Shown: one piece after another, positions 18,001 through 49,740 of the stretch | How positions within the stretch are numbered: the first letter of the stretch is position 1 | How the letters are laid out: every line of letters starts with the position of its first letter | Assembly (NCBI RefSeq): GCF_026930045.1 | Contig: NC_072740.1 | Coordinates: forward strand, 29,364,384 to 29,428,383 | DNA from: Uloborus diversus | Taxonomy: Eukaryota | DNA length: 64,000 nucleotides | Reading direction: 5' to 3' | Position numbers and translations under genes: made by a program | The notes under the pieces: model-generated | Database searches by the model: none | Seen by the model: the letters and a program-made list of their open reading frames with translations, nothing else | Told to the model about the DNA's origin: nothing

Positions 18001-18347
18001 TGTTTTAAATTAAATTTCAGAGTGAAAACATGAATTTATTTATTATTTTTTTCATAAAAATATATTAATATAAGGGTAAAAATCTATTAGTCTGTAATTT
18101 AACTGCAATTAAAGGTCCACGATTATTGAGGAATGGCTGACTTAGGTTTTGATGATCTGTTCTTCTTTAATCTCCATTTTCACTTTATTGGGGAAGCTGA
18201 AAAAATTTCAAATCAAAGACTTCTTAAGAATTTTTACAACATAAGCACAAGTATATAAAGTTTCTAAAACTTGAGCAATAAATACTTTTTAAATTTCTTA
18301 ACACCGTATTCAACTAGCACCCTATCTCCTGTAGACTTCAACATAAG

Positions 18348-18622
18348 TGTTAGAAACTGAAGTGAAGAGAGGTCCAATTGAATGATAGATGTGTGCACGA
18401 GAAAACGTCAGAACACTGAAAAATAAAATTAAAATCTGTGGGAGTTTAAAAATGGTGTTGTAATGCACAAATGTTTTTGGCTCTGTAGTTTTCTGGTAGT
18501 TTAGCAAAATAAATGTCCTTTTTATGAAGAAAAGGTGAACTTCTTGGATTCCAGCACCACGCATTATTTAATGCAGTCCTGATAAAATAACTCATTGTTA
18601 GAATTTGAGTTTGTATTCAACA
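18348..18622 (+). repeat. BEL/Pao 5' LTR (275 bp)
   Basis: Identical by eye to 22789-23063; starts TGTTAG and ends TTCAACA. Confidence 0.9.
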
Positions 18623-18628
18623 TAATTT

Positions 18629-18646
18629 TGGCGTCCGCGACAGGAC
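18629..18646 (+). promoter_or_regulatory. Primer-binding site TGGCGTCCGCGACAGGAC
   Basis: Begins with TGG 6 nt after the 5' LTR; complementary to a tRNA 3' end (...GTCCTGTCGCGGACGCCA). tRNA identity not determined. Confidence 0.6.
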
Positions 18647-18659
18647 GGGTGCTTGGAAC

Positions 18660-21600
18660 TTGTATAAGAAGATGGATTTAACTACATTGAAAGCTCAGAG
18701 AAAAGGACTGAGGGCGTCTTTTACCCTCAGTATGAAAAAAATTGAAGCTGAACTTTTGAAGGAAATTACTGGTTCGGATGAACTTTTAATTTTAAGAAAT
18801 CAGATTTCTGACAAATTCAAGCGGCTAGATGATTGTCAGAGCATAATATCTGAGCTGTTGTTGAAAGATAAAAATGCCGAGGAGGCTTATTATGAAGATT
18901 GTGAAGAAGCAGAAAATTATCGGGACAAGTTTATTCAAATTTGCTCTCTGCTTGATTTAAAATTTGAAAATGTTCAGCGTAATGGTAACATTAGTAAGCG
19001 CAACTTTAAGCTTCCGACGATAGAACTTAAAAAGTTTAACGGCGAAGCAAGAGAATTTTTAAATTTTTGGAGCCAATTCAAGAAAATCCATGAGGACAAG
19101 GGCATTGATAATGAAGATAAAATGCAGTATTTAATTCAATCGATGGAACCTGGTTCGAAGGCAGAAAGATTAGTGCTGAGTTTTCCTGCTACCGGAGAAA
19201 ATTATAGTAGAGCAATACAGCAGTTAAAGGAAAGATTTGGCCGTGATGATCTGCTGGTGCAAGTGTATGTTCGAGATTTATTGAGACTAGTTATGAAAAA
19301 TGCTGCCACAGGACGGGGGAAAGCTGATCTTCCATCCCTCTATGACGAATTGGAAGGAAAACTTCGTGCGTTGGAAACTCTTGGACGGACCAAAGAGAAG
19401 TATGGAGATTTCTTGACACCTTTGGTTGAGAGCTGTCTGCCGGAAGAAGTTTTAGTAACGTGGGAAAGAAGCCGTAACCATGATCTAACCGAAGATAAGA
19501 ACTGTCGCACTTTAGAGCAGTTAATGAACTTTCTTCGCCAAGAAGTCAATGGAGAAGAAATGGTTCGCCTCGCAAGAACTGGCTTCGGCACGAACTCAAA
19601 TTTGCGCAAACGAGAGCCCACAACTGAGAAGGAAAGTGACCTAGCGACAGCTGCAGCGTTAGTAAGTACTGAGAAAAAGGGTAAGCGATTTGAAAGTTGT
19701 ATTTTTTGTGGAAAAAGTCATCCAAGTAAAAGATGTTTCATTGCAAAAAAGATGACTGTAAATGAAAAACAAAAAATATTGTTAAAAAAGGGGGTTTGTT
19801 TTATATGTTTTAATTCAAATCATATTAGTAAATATTGTAATGTAAAAAGAGAGTTAAAATGTAATGGTTGTGGAGAACCTCATTTTTATGTAATGTGTCC
19901 AAAGCTGGAAAGCAAAAGTTGTGAAGCTAAGGATGTAGTAGTTTCTAAGTCTGAAAATTCTCTCTCTAACTTTGATAAAACTCAAACTGTATTTTTGCAA
20001 ACTCTGTGTGTTCGGATTAAATGTAATAATCGAGAAAAAATAATTCGGGCTTTGGCAGATTCTGGTAGTCAAAGTAGTTATGTAAGTCAGAAAGTTTTGT
20101 CTGAGCTGAAAGCAACTCCACTTCGTGAAGAAACAGTGATTCACTCGTTATTTGGGGGGAGGGAAACGAACCCAAAACGGCATAAGATATTCACTGTTGA
20201 AGTGAGGGGTTTGAAAGGGTCTTTTGCTTGTAGTTTTGAAGCTCTTTCTGAAAGGAAAATTTGTAGTTTTATACCAAAAGTTAGCAATCCTTATATTTTG
20301 AATGAATTAAAGAAAAAGAATATTGAAGTTTCTGATTCCCTTTGTAAAATAAAAGAAATTGATCTTTTAATAGGGGCAGATGTTTTAGGAAAATTGCTGA
20401 CGGGACGTTCAGTAGATTTAGAATCCGGTCTTACTGCCGTAGAAATGAAGCTTGGGTGGACTGTTATGGGTAAGCAGAACACAAATGAGAAAGATGATGT
20501 TTTCAGAACATTATCGATGCATGCTAAAAGTATTCCTTTGAATGAATTGGGGGAACTTGAAAGTATAGGAATAACAGATCCCACTTGCAATGTTAATAAG
20601 AAAGCATGCATAGGAGAACATTTAGCTGAATTTGAGGATAAATTGAAAATTCTTCCTTGTGGAAGATATGAAGTAGTGCTTCCTTGGAAGTATGATTTTT
20701 CGAACTTACCAGATAATAAGGATTTAGCCTGGAAAAGGCACGAAAAAATGATCAGTAAGTCAAAATGTAATAATTTTATAGCGGATTACCAAAATGTATT
20801 CAAAGAATGGGAAAACTTGAATATTATTGAGCGCGTACCAGATTCGGAATTAGAGAATAAGTGCCACTATCTACCACATAGGCCTGTTATAAAAATCGAT
20901 AGTAAGACCACGAAAGTTCGGCCTGTTTCTGATGCTTCAGCATCCCAGAGAGGTAAACCTTCTTTGAATGAATGCTTGGTTAAAGGAATGAACCTCATTG
21001 AACTAATGCCAGATATTGATAGATTCCGGTTGCATCCTATAGGGTTGAGTGTAGGCATTGAAAAGGCATGTATCCCTCCTGAATATGAGATTGCACAGAA
21101 GTTGGAAGGTTCTTTCTTTGTGGACAATTGTGTAACAGGGGTTCATAATACCGAAGAAGAAGCGAAGTTCATCGAACAATCGCAACTTATTATGTCAAAG
21201 GGATGTTTTAACTTGCGAGGGTTTGAAAGCAATGTAGCTTCTGAAAATGTTACGAAGCATTCAGGGGAAGCGTCTATTTTAGGAATTTTATGGAATTTGG
21301 ATAATGACACTCTAAGGTGTAATATAAATATAGAAGCATTGACTTGTGAAACAAAAATTACAAAGCGTTTAATTTTATCTACAGTGCAAAAGATTTTTGA
21401 TCCCATCGGCTTATTAAGCCCTACTACATTGCTTCCTAAACTGATACTGCAAGATGCTTGTAAGTTAAAACATTCCTGGGATTTAGAACTACCCCCTGAT
21501 ATTGTAAATAAATTTTTGAAATGTTTCAAGGAAATTGCATTGTCAAATAACGTAACTTTGCCATGCTACATAATAACCAATTCTACAACAGAACTGTATG

Positions 21601-22073
21601 TATTTGTGGATGCTTCTAAAGAAGCTTACGTGGCGTGCGTCTACGATCGTTCAGTAGTGGAAATTGAAGTTGAAATATATCTCGTTAGGTCTAAAACTAG
21701 AGTAGATCCACTAAAATCACTGAGTATTCCTCGGTTAGAGCTTATCGCTTGCTGCATAGGGGATAGACTTTTGCAAGAAAAATGGAAATTGACTCAGCCT
21801 GAGTTGTGGAAACATATTTTTGGAACAATGAATATAGCTGATGTATTGTCGCGAGAATTCAGCCCTAGAGAATTCTTTGACTTCAATTGGTGGGAATTAC
21901 CGACCTGGCTGAAGTTGGCGCTAGAAAAATGGCTATTATGTGAAGTAGATTGGAGACCAAAAGAAGTAGACGCGAAGAGAAAAATATTAACAATTACCAC
22001 TATTGATCTGAATCTGGACGCACCGCTTTTGCCTCCAAAGTTGGTTCGTATTGTTAATGAATTACTAAATTGA
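18660..22073 (+). CDS. BEL/Pao Gag-Pol polyprotein: gag, CCHC knuckles, aspartic protease, N- and C-terminal RT fragments, RNase H; RT core deleted in frame
   Basis: 1137-aa ORF. Gag DUF1759-like region: KLPTIELKKFNGEAREFLNFWSQF...QQLKERFG (~19000-19410). Zinc knuckles: CIFCGKSHPSKRC, CFICFNSNHISKYC and CNGCGEPHFYVMC (~19700-19900). Protease: ALADSGSQ and LLIGADVLGKLL. RT start: CHYLPHRPVIKIDSKTTKVRPVSDASA...GLSVGIEKAC. This is followed almost directly by the RT C-terminus FFVDNCVTGVHNTEEEA...GFESN, so ~110 aa of RT are missing near 21075-21115. RNase H: YVFVDASKEAYVACVY and SIPRLELIAC. The NIADVLSRE...NWWELPTWL tail is also present. Confidence 0.85.
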   Translation: MYKKMDLTTLKAQRKGLRASFTLSMKKIEAELLKEITGSDELLILRNQISDKFKRLDDCQSIISELLLKDKNAEEAYYEDCEEAENYRDKFIQICSLLDLKFENVQRNGNISKRNFKLPTIELKKFNGEAREFLNFWSQFKKIHEDKGIDNEDKMQYLIQSMEPGSKAERLVLSFPATGENYSRAIQQLKERFGRDDLLVQVYVRDLLRLVMKNAATGRGKADLPSLYDELEGKLRALETLGRTKEKYGDFLTPLVESCLPEEVLVTWERSRNHDLTEDKNCRTLEQLMNFLRQEVNGEEMVRLARTGFGTNSNLRKREPTTEKESDLATAAALVSTEKKGKRFESCIFCGKSHPSKRCFIAKKMTVNEKQKILLKKGVCFICFNSNHISKYCNVKRELKCNGCGEPHFYVMCPKLESKSCEAKDVVVSKSENSLSNFDKTQTVFLQTLCVRIKCNNREKIIRALADSGSQSSYVSQKVLSELKATPLREETVIHSLFGGRETNPKRHKIFTVEVRGLKGSFACSFEALSERKICSFIPKVSNPYILNELKKKNIEVSDSLCKIKEIDLLIGADVLGKLLTGRSVDLESGLTAVEMKLGWTVMGKQNTNEKDDVFRTLSMHAKSIPLNELGELESIGITDPTCNVNKKACIGEHLAEFEDKLKILPCGRYEVVLPWKYDFSNLPDNKDLAWKRHEKMISKSKCNNFIADYQNVFKEWENLNIIERVPDSELENKCHYLPHRPVIKIDSKTTKVRPVSDASASQRGKPSLNECLVKGMNLIELMPDIDRFRLHPIGLSVGIEKACIPPEYEIAQKLEGSFFVDNCVTGVHNTEEEAKFIEQSQLIMSKGCFNLRGFESNVASENVTKHSGEASILGILWNLDNDTLRCNINIEALTCETKITKRLILSTVQKIFDPIGLLSPTTLLPKLILQDACKLKHSWDLELPPDIVNKFLKCFKEIALSNNVTLPCYIITNSTTELYVFVDASKEAYVACVYDRSVVEIEVEIYLVRSKTRVDPLKSLSIPRLELIACCIGDRLLQEKWKLTQPELWKHIFGTMNIADVLSREFSPREFFDFNWWELPTWLKLALEKWLLCEVDWRPKEVDAKRKILTITTIDLNLDAPLLPPKLVRIVNELLN

Positions 22074-22088
22074 ACTCCTGGCAAATCA

Positions 22089-22826
22089 GTGTTGAATTAT
22101 GAAGAGTTGAACGCATTGATATGTGATTGTGAATTTGTAATTAATTCAAGGCCTCTAACATACGGGTCGGAAAACCCTCAGGAGTTGATTCCTCTCACAC
22201 CTTCAATGTTTCTTATTGAAAACCGTAGTTTTGATGTTACAGATATTGGTCATGTGGATTTGCAAAGTCCAAAAAAGAGAAAAAGATATAGATATAAGCT
22301 GTTCAATGATTTAAGACAGCGTTTCAGAAAAGAATATTTAGGCCAATTAATTCAAAAACACTATGAGAAGCCAACCCGAGAGCCAAGAGTTGGCGAAATT
22401 GTTTTAATTGGCGACGATAATAAAAAACGCGTGTTTTGGCCTTTGGCGAAAATTATTGAATTGATTCCTGGACGAGATAAAAGGGTTCGCGCTGTTAGGC
22501 TCAAAACTCAAAATGGGATTTTTGTTCGTCCAGTGGAACGTGTTTACCCATTGGAGATACGTACTGATGATGAGGCGGTTGCAATTTCCGACAAAGCCAT
22601 GAGTGTGATGGAATCAAATCCTAAGGAAGGTGTTCAGAAGACTTCTGTTAAAAAGTGTTATCCTGATATTGTTCTGGAAAAATATACCAGATCTGGAAGG
22701 TGTGTGAAAGTACCAAAAAGACTGGATCTTTTAAATAATGAGTGTTACATGTTTGAGACCCTTCCCAGAGTCTCAAAGGGGGGAGGTATGTTAGAAACTG
22801 AAGTGAAGAGAGGTCCAATTGAATGA
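22089..22826 (+). CDS. BEL/Pao integrase C-terminal region (DUF5641-like) only; integrase zinc finger and DDE core absent
   Basis: 245-aa ORF reading LNYEELNALICDCEFVINSRPLTY...LTPSMFLIE...VGEIVLIGDDNKKRVFWPLAKIIELIPGRDKRVRAVRLKTQNG. This is the typical C-terminal tail of BEL/Pao IN. It starts only 16 nt after the gag-pol stop, so the ~250-300 aa IN catalytic region is deleted. The ORF runs into the 3' LTR. Confidence 0.75.
   Translation: MLNYEELNALICDCEFVINSRPLTYGSENPQELIPLTPSMFLIENRSFDVTDIGHVDLQSPKKRKRYRYKLFNDLRQRFRKEYLGQLIQKHYEKPTREPRVGEIVLIGDDNKKRVFWPLAKIIELIPGRDKRVRAVRLKTQNGIFVRPVERVYPLEIRTDDEAVAISDKAMSVMESNPKEGVQKTSVKKCYPDIVLEKYTRSGRCVKVPKRLDLLNNECYMFETLPRVSKGGGMLETEVKRGPIE
22775..22786 (+). 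promoter_or_regulatory. Polypurine tract AAAGGGGGGAGG
   Basis: Purine run 2 nt upstream of the 3' LTR start. Confidence 0.7.
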
Positions 22827-23063
22827 TAGATGTGTGCACGAGAAAACGTCAGAACACTGAAAAATAAAATTAAAATCTGTGGGAGTTTAAAAATGGTGTT
22901 GTAATGCACAAATGTTTTTGGCTCTGTAGTTTTCTGGTAGTTTAGCAAAATAAATGTCCTTTTTATGAAGAAAAGGTGAACTTCTTGGATTCCAGCACCA
23001 CGCATTATTTAATGCAGTCCTGATAAAATAACTCATTGTTAGAATTTGAGTTTGTATTCAACA
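22789..23063 (+). repeat. BEL/Pao 3' LTR (275 bp)
   Basis: Identical by eye to the 5' LTR; preceded by the PPT AAAGGGGGGAGG. Confidence 0.9.
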
Positions 23064-23111
23064 ATAAGCTTAGTGGAATGGGAGTTTGATCAGAATTGGT
23101 TTTCAATTTAT

Positions 23112-23435: not shown

Positions 23436-24484
23436 TTGTTGGGCTAAATGCCTTTATTTTTGGTTCTTGAAGGATTTCACCAATATTGTTTAAAAGAAAA
23501 ATCATTTTGTGACTTACCTTTTGCCATTCCGAGAGAAAACTTTGCGCGAAGAATCCCATCCACCTGCCGCCAACACTCAAATGTCCGAGTTTGAATCGGA
23601 AGTGTTTGGAAAACATGCGGCATGCTATGATTGGTTGTTGTCATTCGGCAGATGTCGGTAAACTTCCGAAAGAGCACGTGTCAATGACGTGATGAAATCA
23701 TGTTGAGGTGTTAAGTGCTGAATGCCAAATTAAATAAGAATTGTGTAACCGGCAAGCTGTGTTTTCTCCGGGTTGTGTTGTTTTGGCAATATGCAAATTA
23801 GGTAACGTCACATTGTTTCTGGAAAGGCCGAATCTGGCTATAAATACGCAGACCGGCAGGAGCTCGATCGCTTCGCTTCGTTTTTTTACTTCTACTCGTC
23901 TCCTCGTCTTGTGTTGTCTGTGTCCCGTGAACGTGTTCGTCAAATGTCATCCTAAATTTTTTTGCTATTGGCCTCTTGGTGAGGTCTGGTTTTTCCTGGA
24001 AAAGCACTGATGATGTTTTGAGTTTGGAACCCGCGTGTTGTGATGACGTCTATAAAAGCAAAGAGTTCTAAGTTTCCCTGATGTGGGTCTTTTGTTCTCC
24101 TGCGGAAGAAGATCGCGTCCATCCCTGGTATACCTTTCCCTGATGTGGTGAACTGTTGCTCACGCGGTGTGAATCGACCTGCCTGCAATTCGTGGAAATT
24201 GCCATGCTGTCCAACGACCGGTGAGGCGTCACCTTGGATCACCAACAGGACTTTTAATCCATGCATGGACTCATTGTAAGATCTCTTTTTCTAATTTTTC
24301 CCGGGGAACAAATCATTGTGTTGTAACCAATTTTCAATATGTGTCAAATAAATGTTTTTCAGTGTAAAGAATGATTCATGTTTTATTTTCTTCGGGCAGA
24401 CCACTACCTCAAATTTTTAGTTGGAAATGAGTTGCCTAATTTTCAGCTTAGCTGTAGGCCATAAACCTCAAATTATATCCAACA
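23436..24484 (+). repeat. copia 5' LTR (1049 bp)
   Basis: Matches the 3' LTR except for a few SNPs (e.g. t/c at 23750 vs 29068; g/a in gaggtctGgttttt vs gaggtctAgttttt; gatc vs gaac near 24240 vs 29557). Contains a TATA box and AATAAA. Confidence 0.9.
23839..23846 (+). promoter_or_regulatory. TATA box (TATAAATA) in LTR U3; same motif in the 3' LTR near 29156
   Basis: Sequence context ggctataaatacgcagaccggcagg. Confidence 0.5.
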
Positions 24485-24486
24485 GG

Positions 24487-24497
24487 TGGTAGCAGAG
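24487..24497 (+). promoter_or_regulatory. Primer-binding site TGGTAGCAGAG, complementary to the 3' end of initiator tRNA-Met
   Basis: Lies 2 nt after the 5' LTR. Eukaryotic tRNAi-Met ends ...CCUCUGCUACCA, whose reverse complement is TGGTAGCAGAGG. Confidence 0.75.
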
Positions 24498-24524
24498 TCG
24501 TGTGGTTGATCTGCCCGGAGAAAA

Positions 24525-26333
24525 TTGAATCATTTCTTTATTATGGAGAAAGATTATAGAAACGTTGAGAAGTTGGGCTCCCATAATTGGGCTACCTGGT
24601 CCAAAGATATAAAAATGGTGCTCATAGAAAGGGATTTATGGGAGATTACCCAAAAGAAACCAGAAGGGGAGTTAACTAGTGCTGACAGAAAAAGATGTGG
24701 CCAAGCTTTAGCCATCATCTATTTAAACTTGGAAAAAGATACAAAAAGGTTAATTGATAATTTGGAAGATCCTAATGAAGCCTGGAAAGCCCTTAAGGCA
24801 AATTTTGAACCCCCATCTTTGGCCAGAGTAGCCGCATTGTGGGAATCCTACTTCTCTTGCAAAATGCAAGAAGGTGAAACGGTGGGATTATTCGCTGCAA
24901 GGTTGGGGGGAATTTTTAACCAACTAGTCGAAAATGGATATATTATGGAAGAAAAACTCAGAACTTTTCAATTGATACGGTATCTACCTCCTAGTTTCAG
25001 CAGCATTGTTCAAGCCATCTACAGATGGGAAGGAGAGAAATTTACTTTCTCGAAAGTAAAAGATGAACTACTAGCTGAGGAAGGTAGGATTAGGTATTTG
25101 GCCGAAGAGCCTAATATAGAAAATTCGGCAATGTTTTCAAAACCCGGAAACTCCGGAATGGCAAATGGTAGGGGTAAATTTCTTGCTAAAAATAAAGTTT
25201 GTTACATTTGCAAAAAGAAAGGGCATATTGCGTCGAAGTGTTGGAGCCGTAATAAAGTAAAACAGGATAGGAATTTTAAATTTCAAGCCAAAGAAGACCC
25301 TCGGGCAGGAATGTTTTGTTCAGTAAATGAAAACGAAATTTCTGCAAACACTACCTACCCAAAATGTGAGGATACATGGCTATTGGATAGCGGCAGTACA
25401 TCTCATTTTTGTAGAGATAAATCGTTATTTGCCGAGCTAGAGCCTGTACAAAACACACAAATGGAGGTAGCTGTAGGAAATGTGAAGAGCCAGGTAGAGG
25501 GCATTGGGAAAGTGATTTTTAAAATTGAATCAGATGGAAAATTAGTTACCATCACATTGAATAACGTTTTCTATGCTCCAACACTGCGACGCAACCTAAT
25601 TTCTGGTTCTTGTATAGATAGACAGGGCTATAAGCTCAAATGGTTGCCCGGAAAGATCTGTGTCTTTAATCAAGAAAATGTTAAATTATTTACAGCAAAT
25701 TTAATAAATAAACTTTATCATGTTAAACCAAATTTTTATATTGATTGTGAACATGTTAATTATACCAAATTTTTTAAGACCAAGGACCCGTCTGAAGGGG
25801 CCAATATGGTCAGTATTGATATGGAAAAATGGCATAGGAGATTTTGCCATATAAATATGGAAAGTATCACCAAAACGAGTAAACTTGGTGCAGTCCAAGG
25901 ACTGGAGATTAAGAAGGGGCAAAAACCCAATTGTGACCCTTGTCAATTAGGGAAAATGAGGAAGTGCTCGTTTAAATCTATGCCAGAAAGGCGTACTAAT
26001 TCTGCACTTCAATTGCTCTACATGGACCTGATGGGACCCCTTCAGACCGAGTCCTTGGGGGGAAAGAAATATATTTTTATAATTATAGATGATTTCTCAA
26101 GAAAGTCATATGTTTTCTTTTTAAGAACAAAAAATGAGGCATTTAATGTTTTTGTAAATTTTCAAAAAAGGACTGAAAGATTCCTGAATTCAAAAATTTT
26201 GGCTATCCGTTCCGATAATGGAACAGAATTTGTTAACAAAGATTTTGAAAACTATCTCACCAATCAGGGAATAAAAATAGAGCGGACCAATTCCTACACC
26301 CCGCAAATGAACGGGGGTAGTAGAAAGGTATAA
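24525..26333 (+). CDS. copia Gag-protease-integrase (N-terminal part), ended by a frameshift
   Basis: 602-aa ORF. Gag: WATWSKDIKMVLIERDLWEI. CCHC: CYICKKKGHIASKC (~25200). Protease: LLDSGSTSHF (~25386). Integrase zinc finger: HRRFCH...CDPCQLGK. Integrase catalytic Ds: LLYMDLMGP and IRSDNGTEFV, then YTPQMNG. The frame is broken at 26313-26317 (GGGGG); the +1 frame continues NGVVERYNLTIMNGVRSML, which is the conserved NG.AER.NRT motif. Confidence 0.9.
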   Translation: MNHFFIMEKDYRNVEKLGSHNWATWSKDIKMVLIERDLWEITQKKPEGELTSADRKRCGQALAIIYLNLEKDTKRLIDNLEDPNEAWKALKANFEPPSLARVAALWESYFSCKMQEGETVGLFAARLGGIFNQLVENGYIMEEKLRTFQLIRYLPPSFSSIVQAIYRWEGEKFTFSKVKDELLAEEGRIRYLAEEPNIENSAMFSKPGNSGMANGRGKFLAKNKVCYICKKKGHIASKCWSRNKVKQDRNFKFQAKEDPRAGMFCSVNENEISANTTYPKCEDTWLLDSGSTSHFCRDKSLFAELEPVQNTQMEVAVGNVKSQVEGIGKVIFKIESDGKLVTITLNNVFYAPTLRRNLISGSCIDRQGYKLKWLPGKICVFNQENVKLFTANLINKLYHVKPNFYIDCEHVNYTKFFKTKDPSEGANMVSIDMEKWHRRFCHINMESITKTSKLGAVQGLEIKKGQKPNCDPCQLGKMRKCSFKSMPERRTNSALQLLYMDLMGPLQTESLGGKKYIFIIIDDFSRKSYVFFLRTKNEAFNVFVNFQKRTERFLNSKILAIRSDNGTEFVNKDFENYLTNQGIKIERTNSYTPQMNGGSRKV

Positions 26334-26343
26334 TTTAACCATA

Positions 26344-28620
26344 ATGAATGGTGTGAGGTCTATGCTCAAGGATTCTGGATTGGGGGATGAGTTTTGGGCT
26401 GAAGCCGCTCTTTGTTTCAACTATGTAAGGAATCGGACGGTAATAGGAAATATGGACAAGACCCCATTCGAGCTGTTTTCTGGACGTAAACCTTCAGTGA
26501 GGCACCTACGTATTTTTGGGTGTACTGCCTATGTAGGTCAGCCTAGGTCCAAACTAAAAAAGTTAGATATGAGGGCTACCAAGGGGATCATGGTCGGATA
26601 CGCCTTACGTACCAAAGGGTACAGAATCTGGGATCCTGAAACCAGAACAGTCACAGAAACTATTAACGTAAAGTTTAATGAAAATGAAAGATGGGGGGAA
26701 TTAAAAGTCCAAAATAAAAATGAGAGAAAATTTAACTTTATCAGGCCTATAAGTGAAGTTCAACTTGAACAGGAAATCCAGGAGAGTGTTGAGCAAACTC
26801 CCTGTGAAAAAATTAAATGGGTTAGAGAAGCCAAAAAGAGAAAGACCGGGGATAGGACTGATATTTATTATACAATTGCTGGTAAAAATAAAGTAAGATT
26901 AAATTCATTAAAACAGGTTCTAAAATATTGTAGTGAAAATAAAATAGAGTATAAACCAAAACTTTTTGACTTTTCATCTAAAAATCCAACAGTAGGGGAA
27001 ATCTGTGACGACAGTGAAAGTTCGGGAGAAAGTGAAGAAGCAAGTTTGGTAGAAATTTTTATACCGAACTCGTATAGGCAATGTATGGCTACCCCCGAGG
27101 TGGACAACTGGAAACTGGCCATGGAGTCTGAATTGGATGTCATTAACCAAAGAGAGGTGTGGGACCTTGTACCCCCACCAGAGGGGAAACCAATTTTGGG
27201 AAACAGGTGGGTCTACGACCTCAAGGTAAATGACAGGGGTGAAGTTGTAAGATACAAGGCCAGATTAGTTGTTAGGGGGGACCGTCAGTCAATTGAGTCA
27301 TATTCTGAAGTTTTCAGTCCAGTAATTGAGTTTTCACTTGTAAGAGTTTTCTTTTCTATTTTTATATGTCTTTTAAAATGGTGTCACTCACAAATTGATG
27401 TAAAAAATGCTTACCTGTATGCTGATTTAGAGGAACAAATCTACATGAGACAACCAGAGGGTTTTGTCAGTAAAAGCCACCCTAATTTTGTCTGTAAATT
27501 GAAGAAGTCTCTCTATGGACTACACCAGTCCGGAAGAAACTGGTTCTTAGAAATAGACAGTGTTCTTCGTGGTTTTGGTTTTCAAAAATTAAAAGGATGT
27601 AATTGTGTATACCATAGAGACAAAAATACTTTTCTTCTTATTTATGTAGATGATATAATAATTCTAGCAAAAAATGAAAATTTAATTAAAAAGGTAATCA
27701 ATGAAATTAAAAGTATGTATGATATTAAAGAAATGGGGAAAACCAGAAAGCTCCTGGGGATTGAATTTGTGGAAGATAAAAATAATCTTTTCATTCACCA
27801 AAGCTCTTATATTTCGAAGGTCTTGGAGTTATTCTCTGACTACTATGTGCCAAATTCAACCCTCCCAATCTCAAAGGGTACAGTTTTGTCGAAGGACGAC
27901 TGCCCGAAAACTGAGGAAGAAAAAAGGGAAGCAGAAAAGCTCCCATACAGAAATTTGTTGGGTTGTATGGCATACATAGCGGGGAAGACCCGACCTGACA
28001 TTTCGTATGCGGTGAATATTTTTTCCCAATTTCAAGCAAATCCCGGAAGAAAGCATTGGGATTTTCTATTAAGATTGCTAGGGTATTTAAAGCATACAAT
28101 ATCATACAAACTAAATTTAAGTTCAATCAATAGTGTAAATCTACGGGGATTTTCAGACTCCGATTACGCCGCTAATCGGGAGGATAGGGTCTCAATGGGA
28201 GGATCAATTTTGTGTATTGATCGGGTCCCGATTAATTGGAGGACATTTAAACATAAATGTGTTGCGTTATCCACAATGGAAGCAGAATATATTTCACTTG
28301 GTGAAACTGCAAAAGAAATGGTCTGGCTGAAGAGGATAATCACAGAAATAAGTGAATTAGATATTGAAAACCTCCAGCTTAGAGATACAATTATTTATTG
28401 TGATAACACTGCAACAATTGATTTTTCTAAGTCTCCCATTGAGAATTCCCGTACAAAACACATTGATGTAAGGTACCATTTTTTAAGAAATTTAATTGAG
28501 CAAAAGATTTTTTTGATTAAATATGTGAGGACAAATATAAACATCGCGGATATTTTCACTAAACCCCTATCTAAGAATTGTTTAAATAAACTTTGTAAAA
28601 TTATATTTAATTGGGATTAA
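26344..28620 (+). CDS. copia integrase C-terminal part, reverse transcriptase and RNase H
   Basis: 758-aa ORF. IN: TPFELFSGRKPSVRHLRIFGC. RT: WDLVPPPEGKPILGNRWVYDLK, YKARLVVRGDRQ, DVKNAYLYADLEEQIYMRQPEGF, KLKKSLYGLHQSGRNW and YVDDIIILAKN (~27643). RNase H: GFSDSDYAANREDR, STMEAEYISLGETAKE and IYCDNTATIDFSKSPIENSRTKHIDVRYHFLR. Confidence 0.9.
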   Translation: MNGVRSMLKDSGLGDEFWAEAALCFNYVRNRTVIGNMDKTPFELFSGRKPSVRHLRIFGCTAYVGQPRSKLKKLDMRATKGIMVGYALRTKGYRIWDPETRTVTETINVKFNENERWGELKVQNKNERKFNFIRPISEVQLEQEIQESVEQTPCEKIKWVREAKKRKTGDRTDIYYTIAGKNKVRLNSLKQVLKYCSENKIEYKPKLFDFSSKNPTVGEICDDSESSGESEEASLVEIFIPNSYRQCMATPEVDNWKLAMESELDVINQREVWDLVPPPEGKPILGNRWVYDLKVNDRGEVVRYKARLVVRGDRQSIESYSEVFSPVIEFSLVRVFFSIFICLLKWCHSQIDVKNAYLYADLEEQIYMRQPEGFVSKSHPNFVCKLKKSLYGLHQSGRNWFLEIDSVLRGFGFQKLKGCNCVYHRDKNTFLLIYVDDIIILAKNENLIKKVINEIKSMYDIKEMGKTRKLLGIEFVEDKNNLFIHQSSYISKVLELFSDYYVPNSTLPISKGTVLSKDDCPKTEEEKREAEKLPYRNLLGCMAYIAGKTRPDISYAVNIFSQFQANPGRKHWDFLLRLLGYLKHTISYKLNLSSINSVNLRGFSDSDYAANREDRVSMGGSILCIDRVPINWRTFKHKCVALSTMEAEYISLGETAKEMVWLKRIITEISELDIENLQLRDTIIYCDNTATIDFSKSPIENSRTKHIDVRYHFLRNLIEQKIFLIKYVRTNINIADIFTKPLSKNCLNKLCKIIFNWD

Positions 28621-28740
28621 ATGAGGGGGGCGTATCAAATTTTTGAACTGTTTTTCAAATGTATCTTTTGTAAATATAATATGAATGTAGTTAAATGTTT
28701 TTAATGTATATAATGTGTTTTTTTTGATGAAATTCCTTCA

Positions 28741-28752
28741 AGAGGGGGGAAC
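28741..28752 (+). promoter_or_regulatory. Polypurine tract AGAGGGGGGAAC
   Basis: Immediately upstream of the 3' LTR. Confidence 0.7.
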
Positions 28753-28753
28753 T

Positions 28754-29801
28754 TGTTGGGCTAAATGCCTTTATTTTTGGTTCTTGAAGGATTTCACCAA
28801 TATTGTTTAAAAGAAAAATCATTTTGTGACTTACCTTTTGCCATTCCGAGAGAAAACTTTGCGCGAAGAATCCCATCCACCTGCCGCCAACACTCAAATG
28901 TCCGAGTTTGAATCGGAAGTGTTTGGAAAACATGCGGCATGCTATGATTGGTTGTTGTCATTCGGCAGATGTCGGTAAACTTCCGAAAGAGCACGTGTCA
29001 ATGACGTGATGAAATCATGTTGAGGTGTTAAGTGCTGAATGCCAAATTAAATAAGAATTGTGCAACCGGCAAGCTGTGTTTTCTCCGGGTTGTGTTGTTT
29101 TGGCAATATGCAAATTAGGTAACGTCACATTGTTTCTGGAAAGGCCGAATCTGGCTATAAATACGCAGACCGGCAGGAGCTCGATCGCTTCGCTTCGTTT
29201 TTTTACTTCTACTCGTCTCCTCGTCTTGTGTTGTCTGTGTCCCGTGAACGTGTTCGTCAAATGTCATCCTAAATTTTTTTGCTATTGGCCTCTTGGTGAG
29301 GTCTAGTTTTTCCTGGAAAAGCACTGATGATGTTTTGAGTTTGGAACCCGCGTGTTGTGATGACGTCTATAAAAGCAAAGAGTTCTAAGTTTCCCTGATG
29401 TGGGTCTTTTGTTCTCCTGCGGAAGAAGATCGCGTCCATCCCTGGTATACCTTTCCCTGATGTGGTGAACTGTTGCTCACGCGGTGTGAATCGACCTGCC
29501 TGCAATTCGTGGAAATTGCCATGCTGTCCAACGACCGGTGAGGCGTCACCTTGGAACACCAACAGGACTTTTAATCCATGCATGGACTCATTGTAAGATC
29601 TCTTTTTCTAATTTTTCCCGGGGAACAAATCATTGTGTTGTAACCAATTTTCAATATGTGTCAAATAAATGTTTTTCAGTGTAAAGAATGATTCATGTTT
29701 TATTTTCTTCGGGCAGACCACTACCTCAAATTTTTAGTTGGAAATGAGTTGCCTAATTTTCAGCTTAGCTGTAGGCCATAAACCTCAAATTATATCCAAC
29801 A
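28754..29801 (+). repeat. copia 3' LTR (1048 bp)
   Basis: As above; preceded by the PPT AGAGGGGGGAAC. Confidence 0.9.
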
Positions 29802-44989: not shown

Positions 44990-45650
44990 CGTGTACCTAT
45001 TTGAACCGAATATTTGGTGCATCCCGGCACCCAATGTTCCAACGCCCAATATTCCCGGCGCCCAATGTTCCCGGCGCCCAATATGCCCAACGTTCAATGT
45101 TCCCGGCACCCTATATGCTAGGCGCCCAAGTGACGGTGCCTAATCTGCGGCGCCCAATCCTCTCTCAAAACATGAAGGGGTGGGCGACTATTCAACATGA
45201 TGCCTGCCCAGACCGTCAAACCAGCACCGCCATAATGGTCAATTTCGCGGATATTGGAGGGCAGATAGCGGGTTCCTGCTTCTATCCACATGAACGCAGG
45301 ACAAGAATAGTCGGTTAAGCTGCCCCCGGGACCCGATACGTGCCCTCCAATATCCACAAAATTTACCATTATGGAGGAGGAGGTTTGACGGTCTGGGCAG
45401 GCATCATGTTCGATGGCTGCACACCCCTCCACGTCTTTGAGAGAGGCTCTGTGACAGTTGCGAGGTACAGGGATGTGGTCTTGGAGCCCTATGCTCACCT
45501 CTTGAGGGGCGCTGAGTTAATTTTTAGCCCTGAGTTAATTTTAATGGATTTTAATACAAGGCCACATATAGAGCTCTTGCAGTCGACGAATTTCCTGAAG
45601 GAGAGAATATTCACTGGATGGATTAGCCAAGCAGATCTCTAGACTCCAAT
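44990..45650. pseudogene. Tc1-like (DD34E-type) transposase remnant arranged as two head-to-head partial copies
   Basis: Plus copy 45340-45642: PSNIHKIYHYGGGGLTVWAGIMFDGCTPLHVF...ILMDFNTRPHIE...WISQADL, i.e. the GGGSVMVWG...DNARPH...SPDL block. Minus copy ~45266 down to 45118: PSNIREIDHYGGAGLTVWAGIMLNSRPPLHVL. A ~70-bp perfect palindrome (45198-45266 vs 45339-45405) encodes HDACPDRQTS..IMVNF.DIGG on both strands. Confidence 0.6.
45030..45140 (+). repeat. 16-bp minisatellite (CGCCCAATGTTCCCGG)n, ~6-7 units
   Basis: Reads cgcccaatattcccgg cgcccaatgttcccgg cgcccaatatgcccaa cgttcaatgttcccgg caccctatatgctagg cgcccaagtgacggtg. Confidence 0.7.
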
Positions 45651-49212: not shown

Positions 49213-49740
49213 TCCCTTGATATTTTTGTAGTTCCAAACATCCTTTATATGTCCACAAAATGCAGAATTATACATAATATATTTCAAAATTTTCTCCGGG
49301 GGAAAAAACCCCGGGCCCCCTAAAATTTGCTGGTATTCTGTAGCCCCCTTAAAGAAGGTTGCCGCCAATGATCGAAAGTGATTTTTGACGGTGTTTTTGG
49401 TACCCAGCGAGCACAAATTTTTCTGTAACGCAACAGTTCTAGAGCTATAGAATGTAGGGACGATCTTGAAACTTCTGGAAATTGCATCGATAATTCACTT
49501 ATCATGAATCTTCGTTTCCTTAACCGCTTTGTCAACTCGTTGAACAAGGTCGTCTGTAGCCACAGACTTGCGCCCCAGACCCCCTTCATCATGCACATTA
49601 TTAATAATAATATTGTTAATAACAACATTAAAAAATAAATTTTCAGTGCATTTATTATTCTGTTAGTTTCTTTTATCTCTTTTAAAATGAAGCATAACTG
49701 GTAAAAGTAATAGATCCAGTGTTTCTTAGAATATGGCAAG
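49213..49740 (-). pseudogene. mariner-like transposase N-terminal HTH fragment within a truncated element
   Basis: Minus ORF segment (~49517-49364) FMISELSMQFPEVSRSSLHSIALELLRYRKICARWVPKTPS matches the mariner HTH block (..IA..L.VS...V...L...GM.K.CA.WVP..L). The terminus 49219-49330 is shared with the 55350 MITE. Confidence 0.45.

Follow-up and report, generated by a model that had tools for sequence, protein, structure and literature searches.

Borders and Cis-Acting Sequences

The window analyzed here is a 64,000-nucleotide stretch of the genome of the spider Uloborus diversus (assembly GCF_026930045.1, contig NC_072740.1, positions 29,364,384 to 29,428,383 of the forward strand), and all positions given below are counted from its first letter. 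At 18348-23063 on the + strand it carries a 4,716-bp copy of a BEL/Pao retrotransposon, an element bounded by long terminal repeats (LTRs). The 5' LTR (18348..18622, +) and the 3' LTR (22789..23063, +) are each 275 nt long, the former displaying TGTT...AACA ends, and they are 100% identical, with the identity ending exactly at these borders. On either side the DNA reads ATAAG, at 18343..18347 and at 23064..23068 (both +), a perfect duplication of the target site. A preliminary description of the locus had reported both the identical LTRs and the perfect duplication, and base-by-base alignment uncovered no substantial difference between the repeats. Direct LTRs, TG..CA termini and a duplication of 5 bp are as expected for BEL/Pao, where the duplication is 4-6 bp. 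The 5' LTR contains the hexamer AATAAA at 18422 and at 18508.

Six nucleotides after the 5' LTR, at 18629..18646 (+), is the sequence TGGCGTCCGCGACAGGAC, which begins with TGG as tRNA primer-binding sites do and is here called the primer-binding-site-like sequence. A search of the window for a tRNA gene as its partner found none. A polypurine tract, AAAGGGGGGAGG, is found at 22775..22786 (+), just upstream of the 3' LTR. As judged from sequence, the LTRs, the primer-binding-site-like sequence and the polypurine tract make up the complete cis anatomy that an LTR retrotransposon needs for replication. When the window was searched with blastn and tblastn for other copies or related coding sequence, only the element itself was found.

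The twelve nucleotides upstream of the element (CTTCAACATAAG, 18336-18347) resemble the end of the LTR followed by the duplication, TTCAACA/ATAAG (23057-23068). The 7-nt match to the LTR terminus may reflect chance or a target-site preference. The idea that the flanks derive from an earlier LTR of this family was rejected, since in local alignment to the LTR the rest of both flanks scored no higher than shuffled sequence.

Gag, Zinc Knuckles, and Protease

One long open reading frame (ORF) encodes Gag, protease and a reduced pol region. It extends over 18672..22073 (+), giving 1133 codons from the first ATG to an in-frame TGA, or 1137 codons when counted from a TTG at 18660. The longer version is the frame of the preliminary description, where Gag, zinc knuckles, protease and RNase H were all said to be uninterrupted. 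For the first three this is correct. In the following, a position is called conserved when it is conserved in at least 90% of 36 full-length (>=1600 aa) BEL/Pao relatives.

The Gag core matches the Pfam family DUF1759 (PF03564) at 19035..19472 (+; E=5.7e-17), and 31/31 of its conserved positions are kept. It is followed at 19698..19898 (+) by three CCHC zinc knuckles, CIFCGKSHPSKRC, CFICFNSNHISKYC, and CNGCGEPHFYVMC, which were identified by a regular expression search of the translation. The pattern C-X2-C-X3-4-H-X4-C is found three times, and all 13 conserved positions are present. The aspartic protease region (20049..20384, +) gives a weak match to Pfam Asp_protease_2 (E=0.0055), and contains the active-site D-S-G at 20058-20066 as well as LLIGADV at 20364-20384. 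The D-[ST]-G motif is invariant in 36/36 full-length relatives and present in the window copy, where 17/17 of the conserved protease positions are kept.

Losses in the Pol Region

The remainder of the frame was aligned to P0003, a related protein from U. diversus, and to the 36 full-length relatives. Four clean in-frame gaps were found: one in the reverse transcriptase (RT), two in RNase H and one in the integrase. With Pfam at E<=0.1 the window copy has no match to RVT_1, rve or Integrase_H2C2, whereas P0003 and a further relative, P0004, do match RVT_1 and P0004 also matches rve and Integrase_H2C2.

The RT junction is placed at 21071/21072 (within 21042..21098, +) by the alignments. Here 52 aa are lost between motif A (GLSVGIEKAC) and IPPEY, which takes out the FG..SSPF motif-B region. 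The catalytic Asp of motif A is found in 36/36 relatives and is replaced by Gly in the window copy. Motif C, FVDN, follows the gap at 21111-21140; the relatives compared typically have Y/F-V-D-N. The RT core is thus missing, as had been proposed, but the lost segment is less than half the ~110 aa first estimated, and the motif-A substitution adds to the damage.

A match to PF05380 ('Peptidase_A17') covers 21360..21779 (+; E=3.9e-35) and corresponds to the RT thumb/connection together with the first half of RNase H, in which VFVDAS and RLEL are found. In the window copy the match ends at position 144 of the 162 in the profile, and in P0003 and P0004 it reaches position 162. The family carries the description 'Pao retrotransposon peptidase'. 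However, it maps downstream of RT motif C (amino acids 901-1040 of the ORF, TTG numbering) and not on the D-S-G protease at 20058-20066, and the name is therefore misleading for domain calling.

RNase H is interrupted twice, by junctions at 21773/21774 (29 aa) and 21785/21786 (12 aa), both seen in the alignments within 21750..21809 (+). In this enzyme the frame is accordingly not uninterrupted, as had been claimed. The 29-aa gap takes out an invariant W-S/T-D-S strand. When an RNase H profile made from the relatives was compared with the PDB, the matches were weak (E about 0.5), and 9/9 were to Bacillus halodurans RNase H; the same weak match (E about 0.5) places the WSDS strand on YSDSQTAIKW of the Bacillus enzyme, a segment that bears a catalytic Asp.

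The largest loss is found in the integrase. At the junction 22037/22038 (22014..22070, +) the alignments indicate that about 285 aa are absent, a gap that spans the H2C2 zinc finger and the entire DDE core and leaves the DUF5641-like tail, in agreement with what had been described. The RT, RNase H and integrase of the protein encoded by the window copy are predicted to be unable to work. Since the complete RT and integrase catalytic domains that autonomy requires are absent both by Pfam and by the alignments, the copy must be regarded as a defective, and not an autonomous, BEL/Pao member.

Every indel in the ORF has a length divisible by three. Four large deletions arising independently would all have such lengths with a probability of ~(1/3)^4 = 0.012, a value that has to be read with the caveat that the locus was chosen because of its long ORF.

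The In-Frame Stop and the Integrase Tail

The ORF is terminated by a TGA at 22071..22073 (+). The relatives have Lys-Arg at this point (...ELLKRTPGKSVLNYEEL...), while the window copy has Asn followed by the stop (...ELLN*TPGKSVLNYEEL...). Frame continuity across this single TGA shows that the C-terminal tail of the integrase, 22074..22826 (+), is in the frame of the long ORF, with DUF5641 (PF18701) matching at 22293-22553 (E=6.9e-17). Without the TGA the frame would comprise 1384 codons and end 38 nt inside the 3' LTR. The tail had been listed earlier as a separate 245-aa frame, 'ORF2'; it is instead the continuation of the first ORF.

Relationship to Other BEL/Pao Elements

Pfam identifies DUF1759, a weak aspartic protease, PF05380 and DUF5641 in the window copy. 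The protein has 141 homologues at E<=1e-10, and the BEL/Pao domains PF05380, PF03564, PF17921, and PF18701 are found among the matches listed. The closest proteins are from U. diversus, followed by those of other spiders and then by BEL/Pao polyproteins from beetle, springtail, moth, and fly. Alignment to the full-length relatives further shows that the remnants occur in the order protease-RT-RNase H-integrase. By domain content and order the coding region is a BEL/Pao gag-pol. BEL/Pao fragments constitute 0.38% of the U. diversus assembly (PMC9912274).

The window copy shares with other arthropod BEL/Pao elements the domain order, the combination of PF03564, PF05380, and PF18701, the TG..CA LTRs and the 5-bp duplication, and its identity to full-length elements from spiders, beetle, springtail, and moth is 34-59%. 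It differs from them in being without the RT motif-B region, the catalytic strand of RNase H, and the zinc finger and DDE core of the integrase. It is also shorter, 4.7 kb against the roughly 5.9 kb that a full-length parent would have with the missing codons restored.

Related Copies and the Age of the Deletions

Two further U. diversus proteins, P0001 (XP_054713683.1, encoded on the 185.5-Mb chromosome) and P0348 (XP_054707478.1, encoded on the 272-Mb chromosome), were compared with the window copy as annotated gene models at the protein level. All four deletion junctions, as well as two single-codon gaps, are common to the three. P0001 and P0348 differ from each other at 6/1169 residues (0.5%), and 5.3-5.8% of the residues distinguish them from the window copy. 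Their C-terminus, which runs into the LTR (...GGGMLETEVKRGPIE), is identical to that of the window copy, while both have Lys-Arg in place of the Asn-stop.

The models of P0001 and P0348 also contain a predicted 171-nt GT-AG intron over zinc knuckles 1-2, the splice sites of which are present in the window copy as well. A donor consensus, AAGG/GTAAGC, is found at 19680/19681 of the window DNA after 'STEKK', and in each of P0001, P0348, and P0003 the gene model is interrupted behind this sequence. In P0001 and P0348 the coding sequence is taken up again in frame 171 nt further on, at an AG acceptor (19851/19852), so that the first two knuckles are skipped. The absence of knuckles 1-2 from these two proteins may accordingly be due to a predicted or real splice rather than to a genomic deletion.

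The alignments place the deletions in an ancestor of at least three copies, belonging to two sub-lineages and located on at least two chromosomes. Because P0001 and P0348 share the four junctions, the deletions must predate the insertion in the window, and the defective lineage must have multiplied afterwards. Nine substitutions at otherwise conserved positions, among them W627G, D795G/S, W951C, G1062E, and P1088L, are found in both the window copy and P0001 but not in P0003. The decay of pol had therefore already begun on the stem of the deleted lineage.

These data bear on the possibility that an autonomous element was inserted at the locus and that deletions in place then removed the RT, RNase H and integrase segments. 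Resident LTR elements commonly suffer internal deletions, and the window taken alone gives no date for the deletions. Such a history would, however, require at least four deletions and 19 losses of conserved pol positions while 550 nt of LTR remained unchanged, and it fails to account for the same four junctions in P0001 and P0348, on two chromosomes and at ~5% amino-acid divergence. Deletion in place is effectively refuted by this and is considered extremely improbable.

The preliminary description had further called the insertion very recent. With zero differences over 275 aligned sites, the divergence between the LTRs is below about 1.1% (95% upper limit, 3/275), so the identity speaks for recency in a relative sense only. 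The insertion is young compared with the 5% amino-acid divergence between the sub-lineages; it has not necessarily just happened.

A second possibility is that the copies sharing the junctions are segmental or chromosomal duplicates of a single dead element, made without any retrotransposition in trans. It is true that the window copy is the one whose flanks were inspected. Yet the perfect 5-bp duplication and the identical LTRs of the window copy are the signature of a fresh integration, and the copies are found on different chromosomes. The strong contrast between gag-protease and pol described in the next section would not be expected in passive duplicates either, and this explanation seems very unlikely.

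It might also be asked whether the locus is a gag-protease gene domesticated by the host. A long open frame, a conserved Gag-protease region and in-frame deletions would all be compatible with domestication, and the relatives are annotated by NCBI as 'uncharacterized protein' genes. Against this stand the intact and identical LTRs, the target-site duplication, the primer-binding-site-like sequence and the polypurine tract, the several diverged copies on different chromosomes, and the presence of another young LTR element next to it in DNA rich in transposable elements (TEs). Domestication is the least credible of the explanations weighed here and is given next to no likelihood. The main consequence is for annotation: the locus and its 'uncharacterized protein' relatives in U. 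diversus are defective retrotransposon copies, not host genes.

Two other proteins deserve mention. P0002 from Parasteatoda (1145 aa, no RVT_1 match on record) was considered as an example of an ancient, conserved deletion, but was rejected when the alignment showed an RT core; the model is chimeric. P0099 (XP_054720556.1) from U. diversus is the model of a host gene for which WD40-type Pfam domains are recorded, and in which a 240-aa Gag fragment of the family of the window element, about 96% identical, appears as internal exons. The fragment is probably an intronic piece of a TE that was exonized by the annotation.

Uneven Conservation Along the Frame

The Gag-protease half and the pol remnants have not fared alike. 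All 61 conserved positions in gag, knuckles, and protease are kept in the window copy, as compared with 111/130 in the pol remnants (Fisher p=5e-4). The same difference is seen in comparison with P0348, where 4/282 gag and 2/185 protease residues differ (1.1-1.4%) as against 59/771 residues of the pol remnants (7.7% pooled; 3-10% by region). When P0003 is used, 0/46 gag and 2/148 protease residues differ, while the divergence in the pol segments is 9-31%.

These numbers suggest that the Gag-protease part is still under constraint. The simplest reading is that selection acts on Gag-protease and on translation through the frame, while the pol remnants drift; continued use of the element's own Gag-protease would explain why this half is conserved as pol decays. 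An alternative is that the near-identical gag-protease sequences stem from recent recombination with the autonomous lineage, by template switching between co-packaged RNAs, and not from purifying selection. LTR retroelements recombine often, and the values for P0003 just given, 0/46 and 2/148 in gag and protease but 9-31% in pol, are what such an exchange could leave behind. On the other hand, amino-acid divergences of ~1% vs. 8-10% are attainable by selection alone, no breakpoint can be located from the protein data, and every indel along the ORF is in frame, pointing to selection on translation. Recombination is considered unlikely to be the explanation, though far less so than any of the three alternatives discussed above.

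Propagation of the Deleted Subfamily

The reading we prefer is that the window copy is a BEL/Pao element of a non-autonomous deletion subfamily which has kept its cis signals and its Gag-protease and is copied by enzymes supplied in trans, and it is considered very probably correct. Dead enzymes, a perfect duplication and identical LTRs in one and the same copy lead us to infer that this copy was made by enzymes acting in trans. In this lineage four in-frame deletions have removed parts of RT, RNase H and integrase. Transcription from the 5' LTR would give an RNA that is packaged into particles, where the reverse transcriptase, RNase H and integrase of an autonomous relative would copy it and later integrate the product. 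Copying in trans would have regenerated the two identical LTRs and the ATAAG duplication. The element's own Gag-protease is probably still used, perhaps in cis. A non-autonomous deletion derivative mobilized by a partner had been suggested from the window sequence. That the derivative was copied after the loss is borne out by the junctions in P0001 and P0348, which at the protein level carry all four of the breakpoints that other copies had been expected to share; the supply of enzymes in trans is the part that goes beyond them.

Several points weigh against this reading. No autonomous partner was identified: a full-length (1600-1800 aa) U. diversus protein of the family was not among the homologues listed, although this is a weak absence since annotation masks TEs. 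P0003 has retained the RT core as well as the RNase H strand, but its gene model is without the integrase core. What is known of the other copies comes from gene models alone. The in-frame TGA could date from before or after the insertion in the window, gene conversion could in principle make the LTRs identical, and recombination with an autonomous relative, rather than selection, might have produced the unequal conservation of gag-protease and pol.

When the tail and those P0003 segments that are absent from the window copy were used as queries to look for a partner, no new close U. diversus protein came up, but these homology searches returned only proteins of ~0.55-1.7 times the query length and could not even re-find P0001 and P0003. 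No match to the RT junction was found in an exact-pattern scan of metagenome contigs, nor to the start of the LTR in a scan of the same kind of viral contigs, and megablast of the element against phage records was likewise without a match.

A possible extension of the preferred reading, put forward tentatively, is that the subfamily represents a long-lived 'half-autonomous' BEL/Pao lineage in which the element's own Gag-protease and the open frame are selected, while RT, RNase H and integrase have been hollowed out. If so, the element would parasitize its autonomous relative while still supplying, and in cis requiring, its own capsid protein. It would then be a BEL/Pao and arachnid counterpart of the mouse IAP 1Δ1 elements.

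Comparison with Known Non-Autonomous LTR Elements

Internally deleted LTR elements that are mobilized in trans are already well known; what is new here is a BEL/Pao case in a spider. The mouse IAP 1Δ1 elements are deleted in gag-pol, have an open fusion frame, depend on a helper and are mobilized in trans (PMC6466679). They are the source of most new insertions, and their own translation product helps in cis (PMC6466679, where Saito et al., 2008 is cited for these elements). The window element resembles IAP 1Δ1 in being internally deleted with the fused frame open, in being unable to replicate alone and in its evolutionary success. IAP 1Δ1, however, is a class II endogenous retrovirus and thus of another superfamily, and it has a single 1.9-kb gag-pol deletion, with the pol enzymes still partly encoded. 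In the window copy four separate deletions hollow out pol and Gag-protease is whole. For IAP 1Δ1 both the mobilization in trans and the cis effect have been demonstrated experimentally, whereas for the window element they are deduced.

Large retrotransposon derivatives (LARDs) and terminal-repeat retrotransposons in miniature (TRIMs), known from plants and animals, are like the window copy in that they keep LTRs, primer-binding site, and polypurine tract and need the enzymes of a partner. They have no coding capacity, as opposed to the 1133-codon ORF with conserved Gag and protease found here. The element opens no new class of biology, but it provides a clean spider example of an LTR element that went on multiplying with a coding frame but dead enzymes. 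Genome-wide data could be used to address the question of whether BEL/Pao Gag prefers the RNA that encodes it.

Neighboring Transposable Elements

Two short ORFs on the - strand, 45118-45498 and 49320-49739, look by eye like remnants of Tc1/mariner transposases (e.g., ...HYGGAGLTVWAGI...); neither gave a Pfam match at E<=0.001. A Ty1/copia LTR retrotransposon follows the BEL/Pao copy downstream at 23437-29801, with only 373 bp between the two. The 1048-nt LTRs of this second element show 99.7% identity (3 mismatches), CTGGT is duplicated at its target site, and its primer-binding site starts with TGGTAGCAGAG. An ORF at 24525-26333 encodes copia Gag, rve, and related domains and a second one at 26344-28620 encodes RVT_2, the two being separated by a single interruption near 26333-26344. 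Two young LTR elements hence adjoin in this TE-rich DNA.

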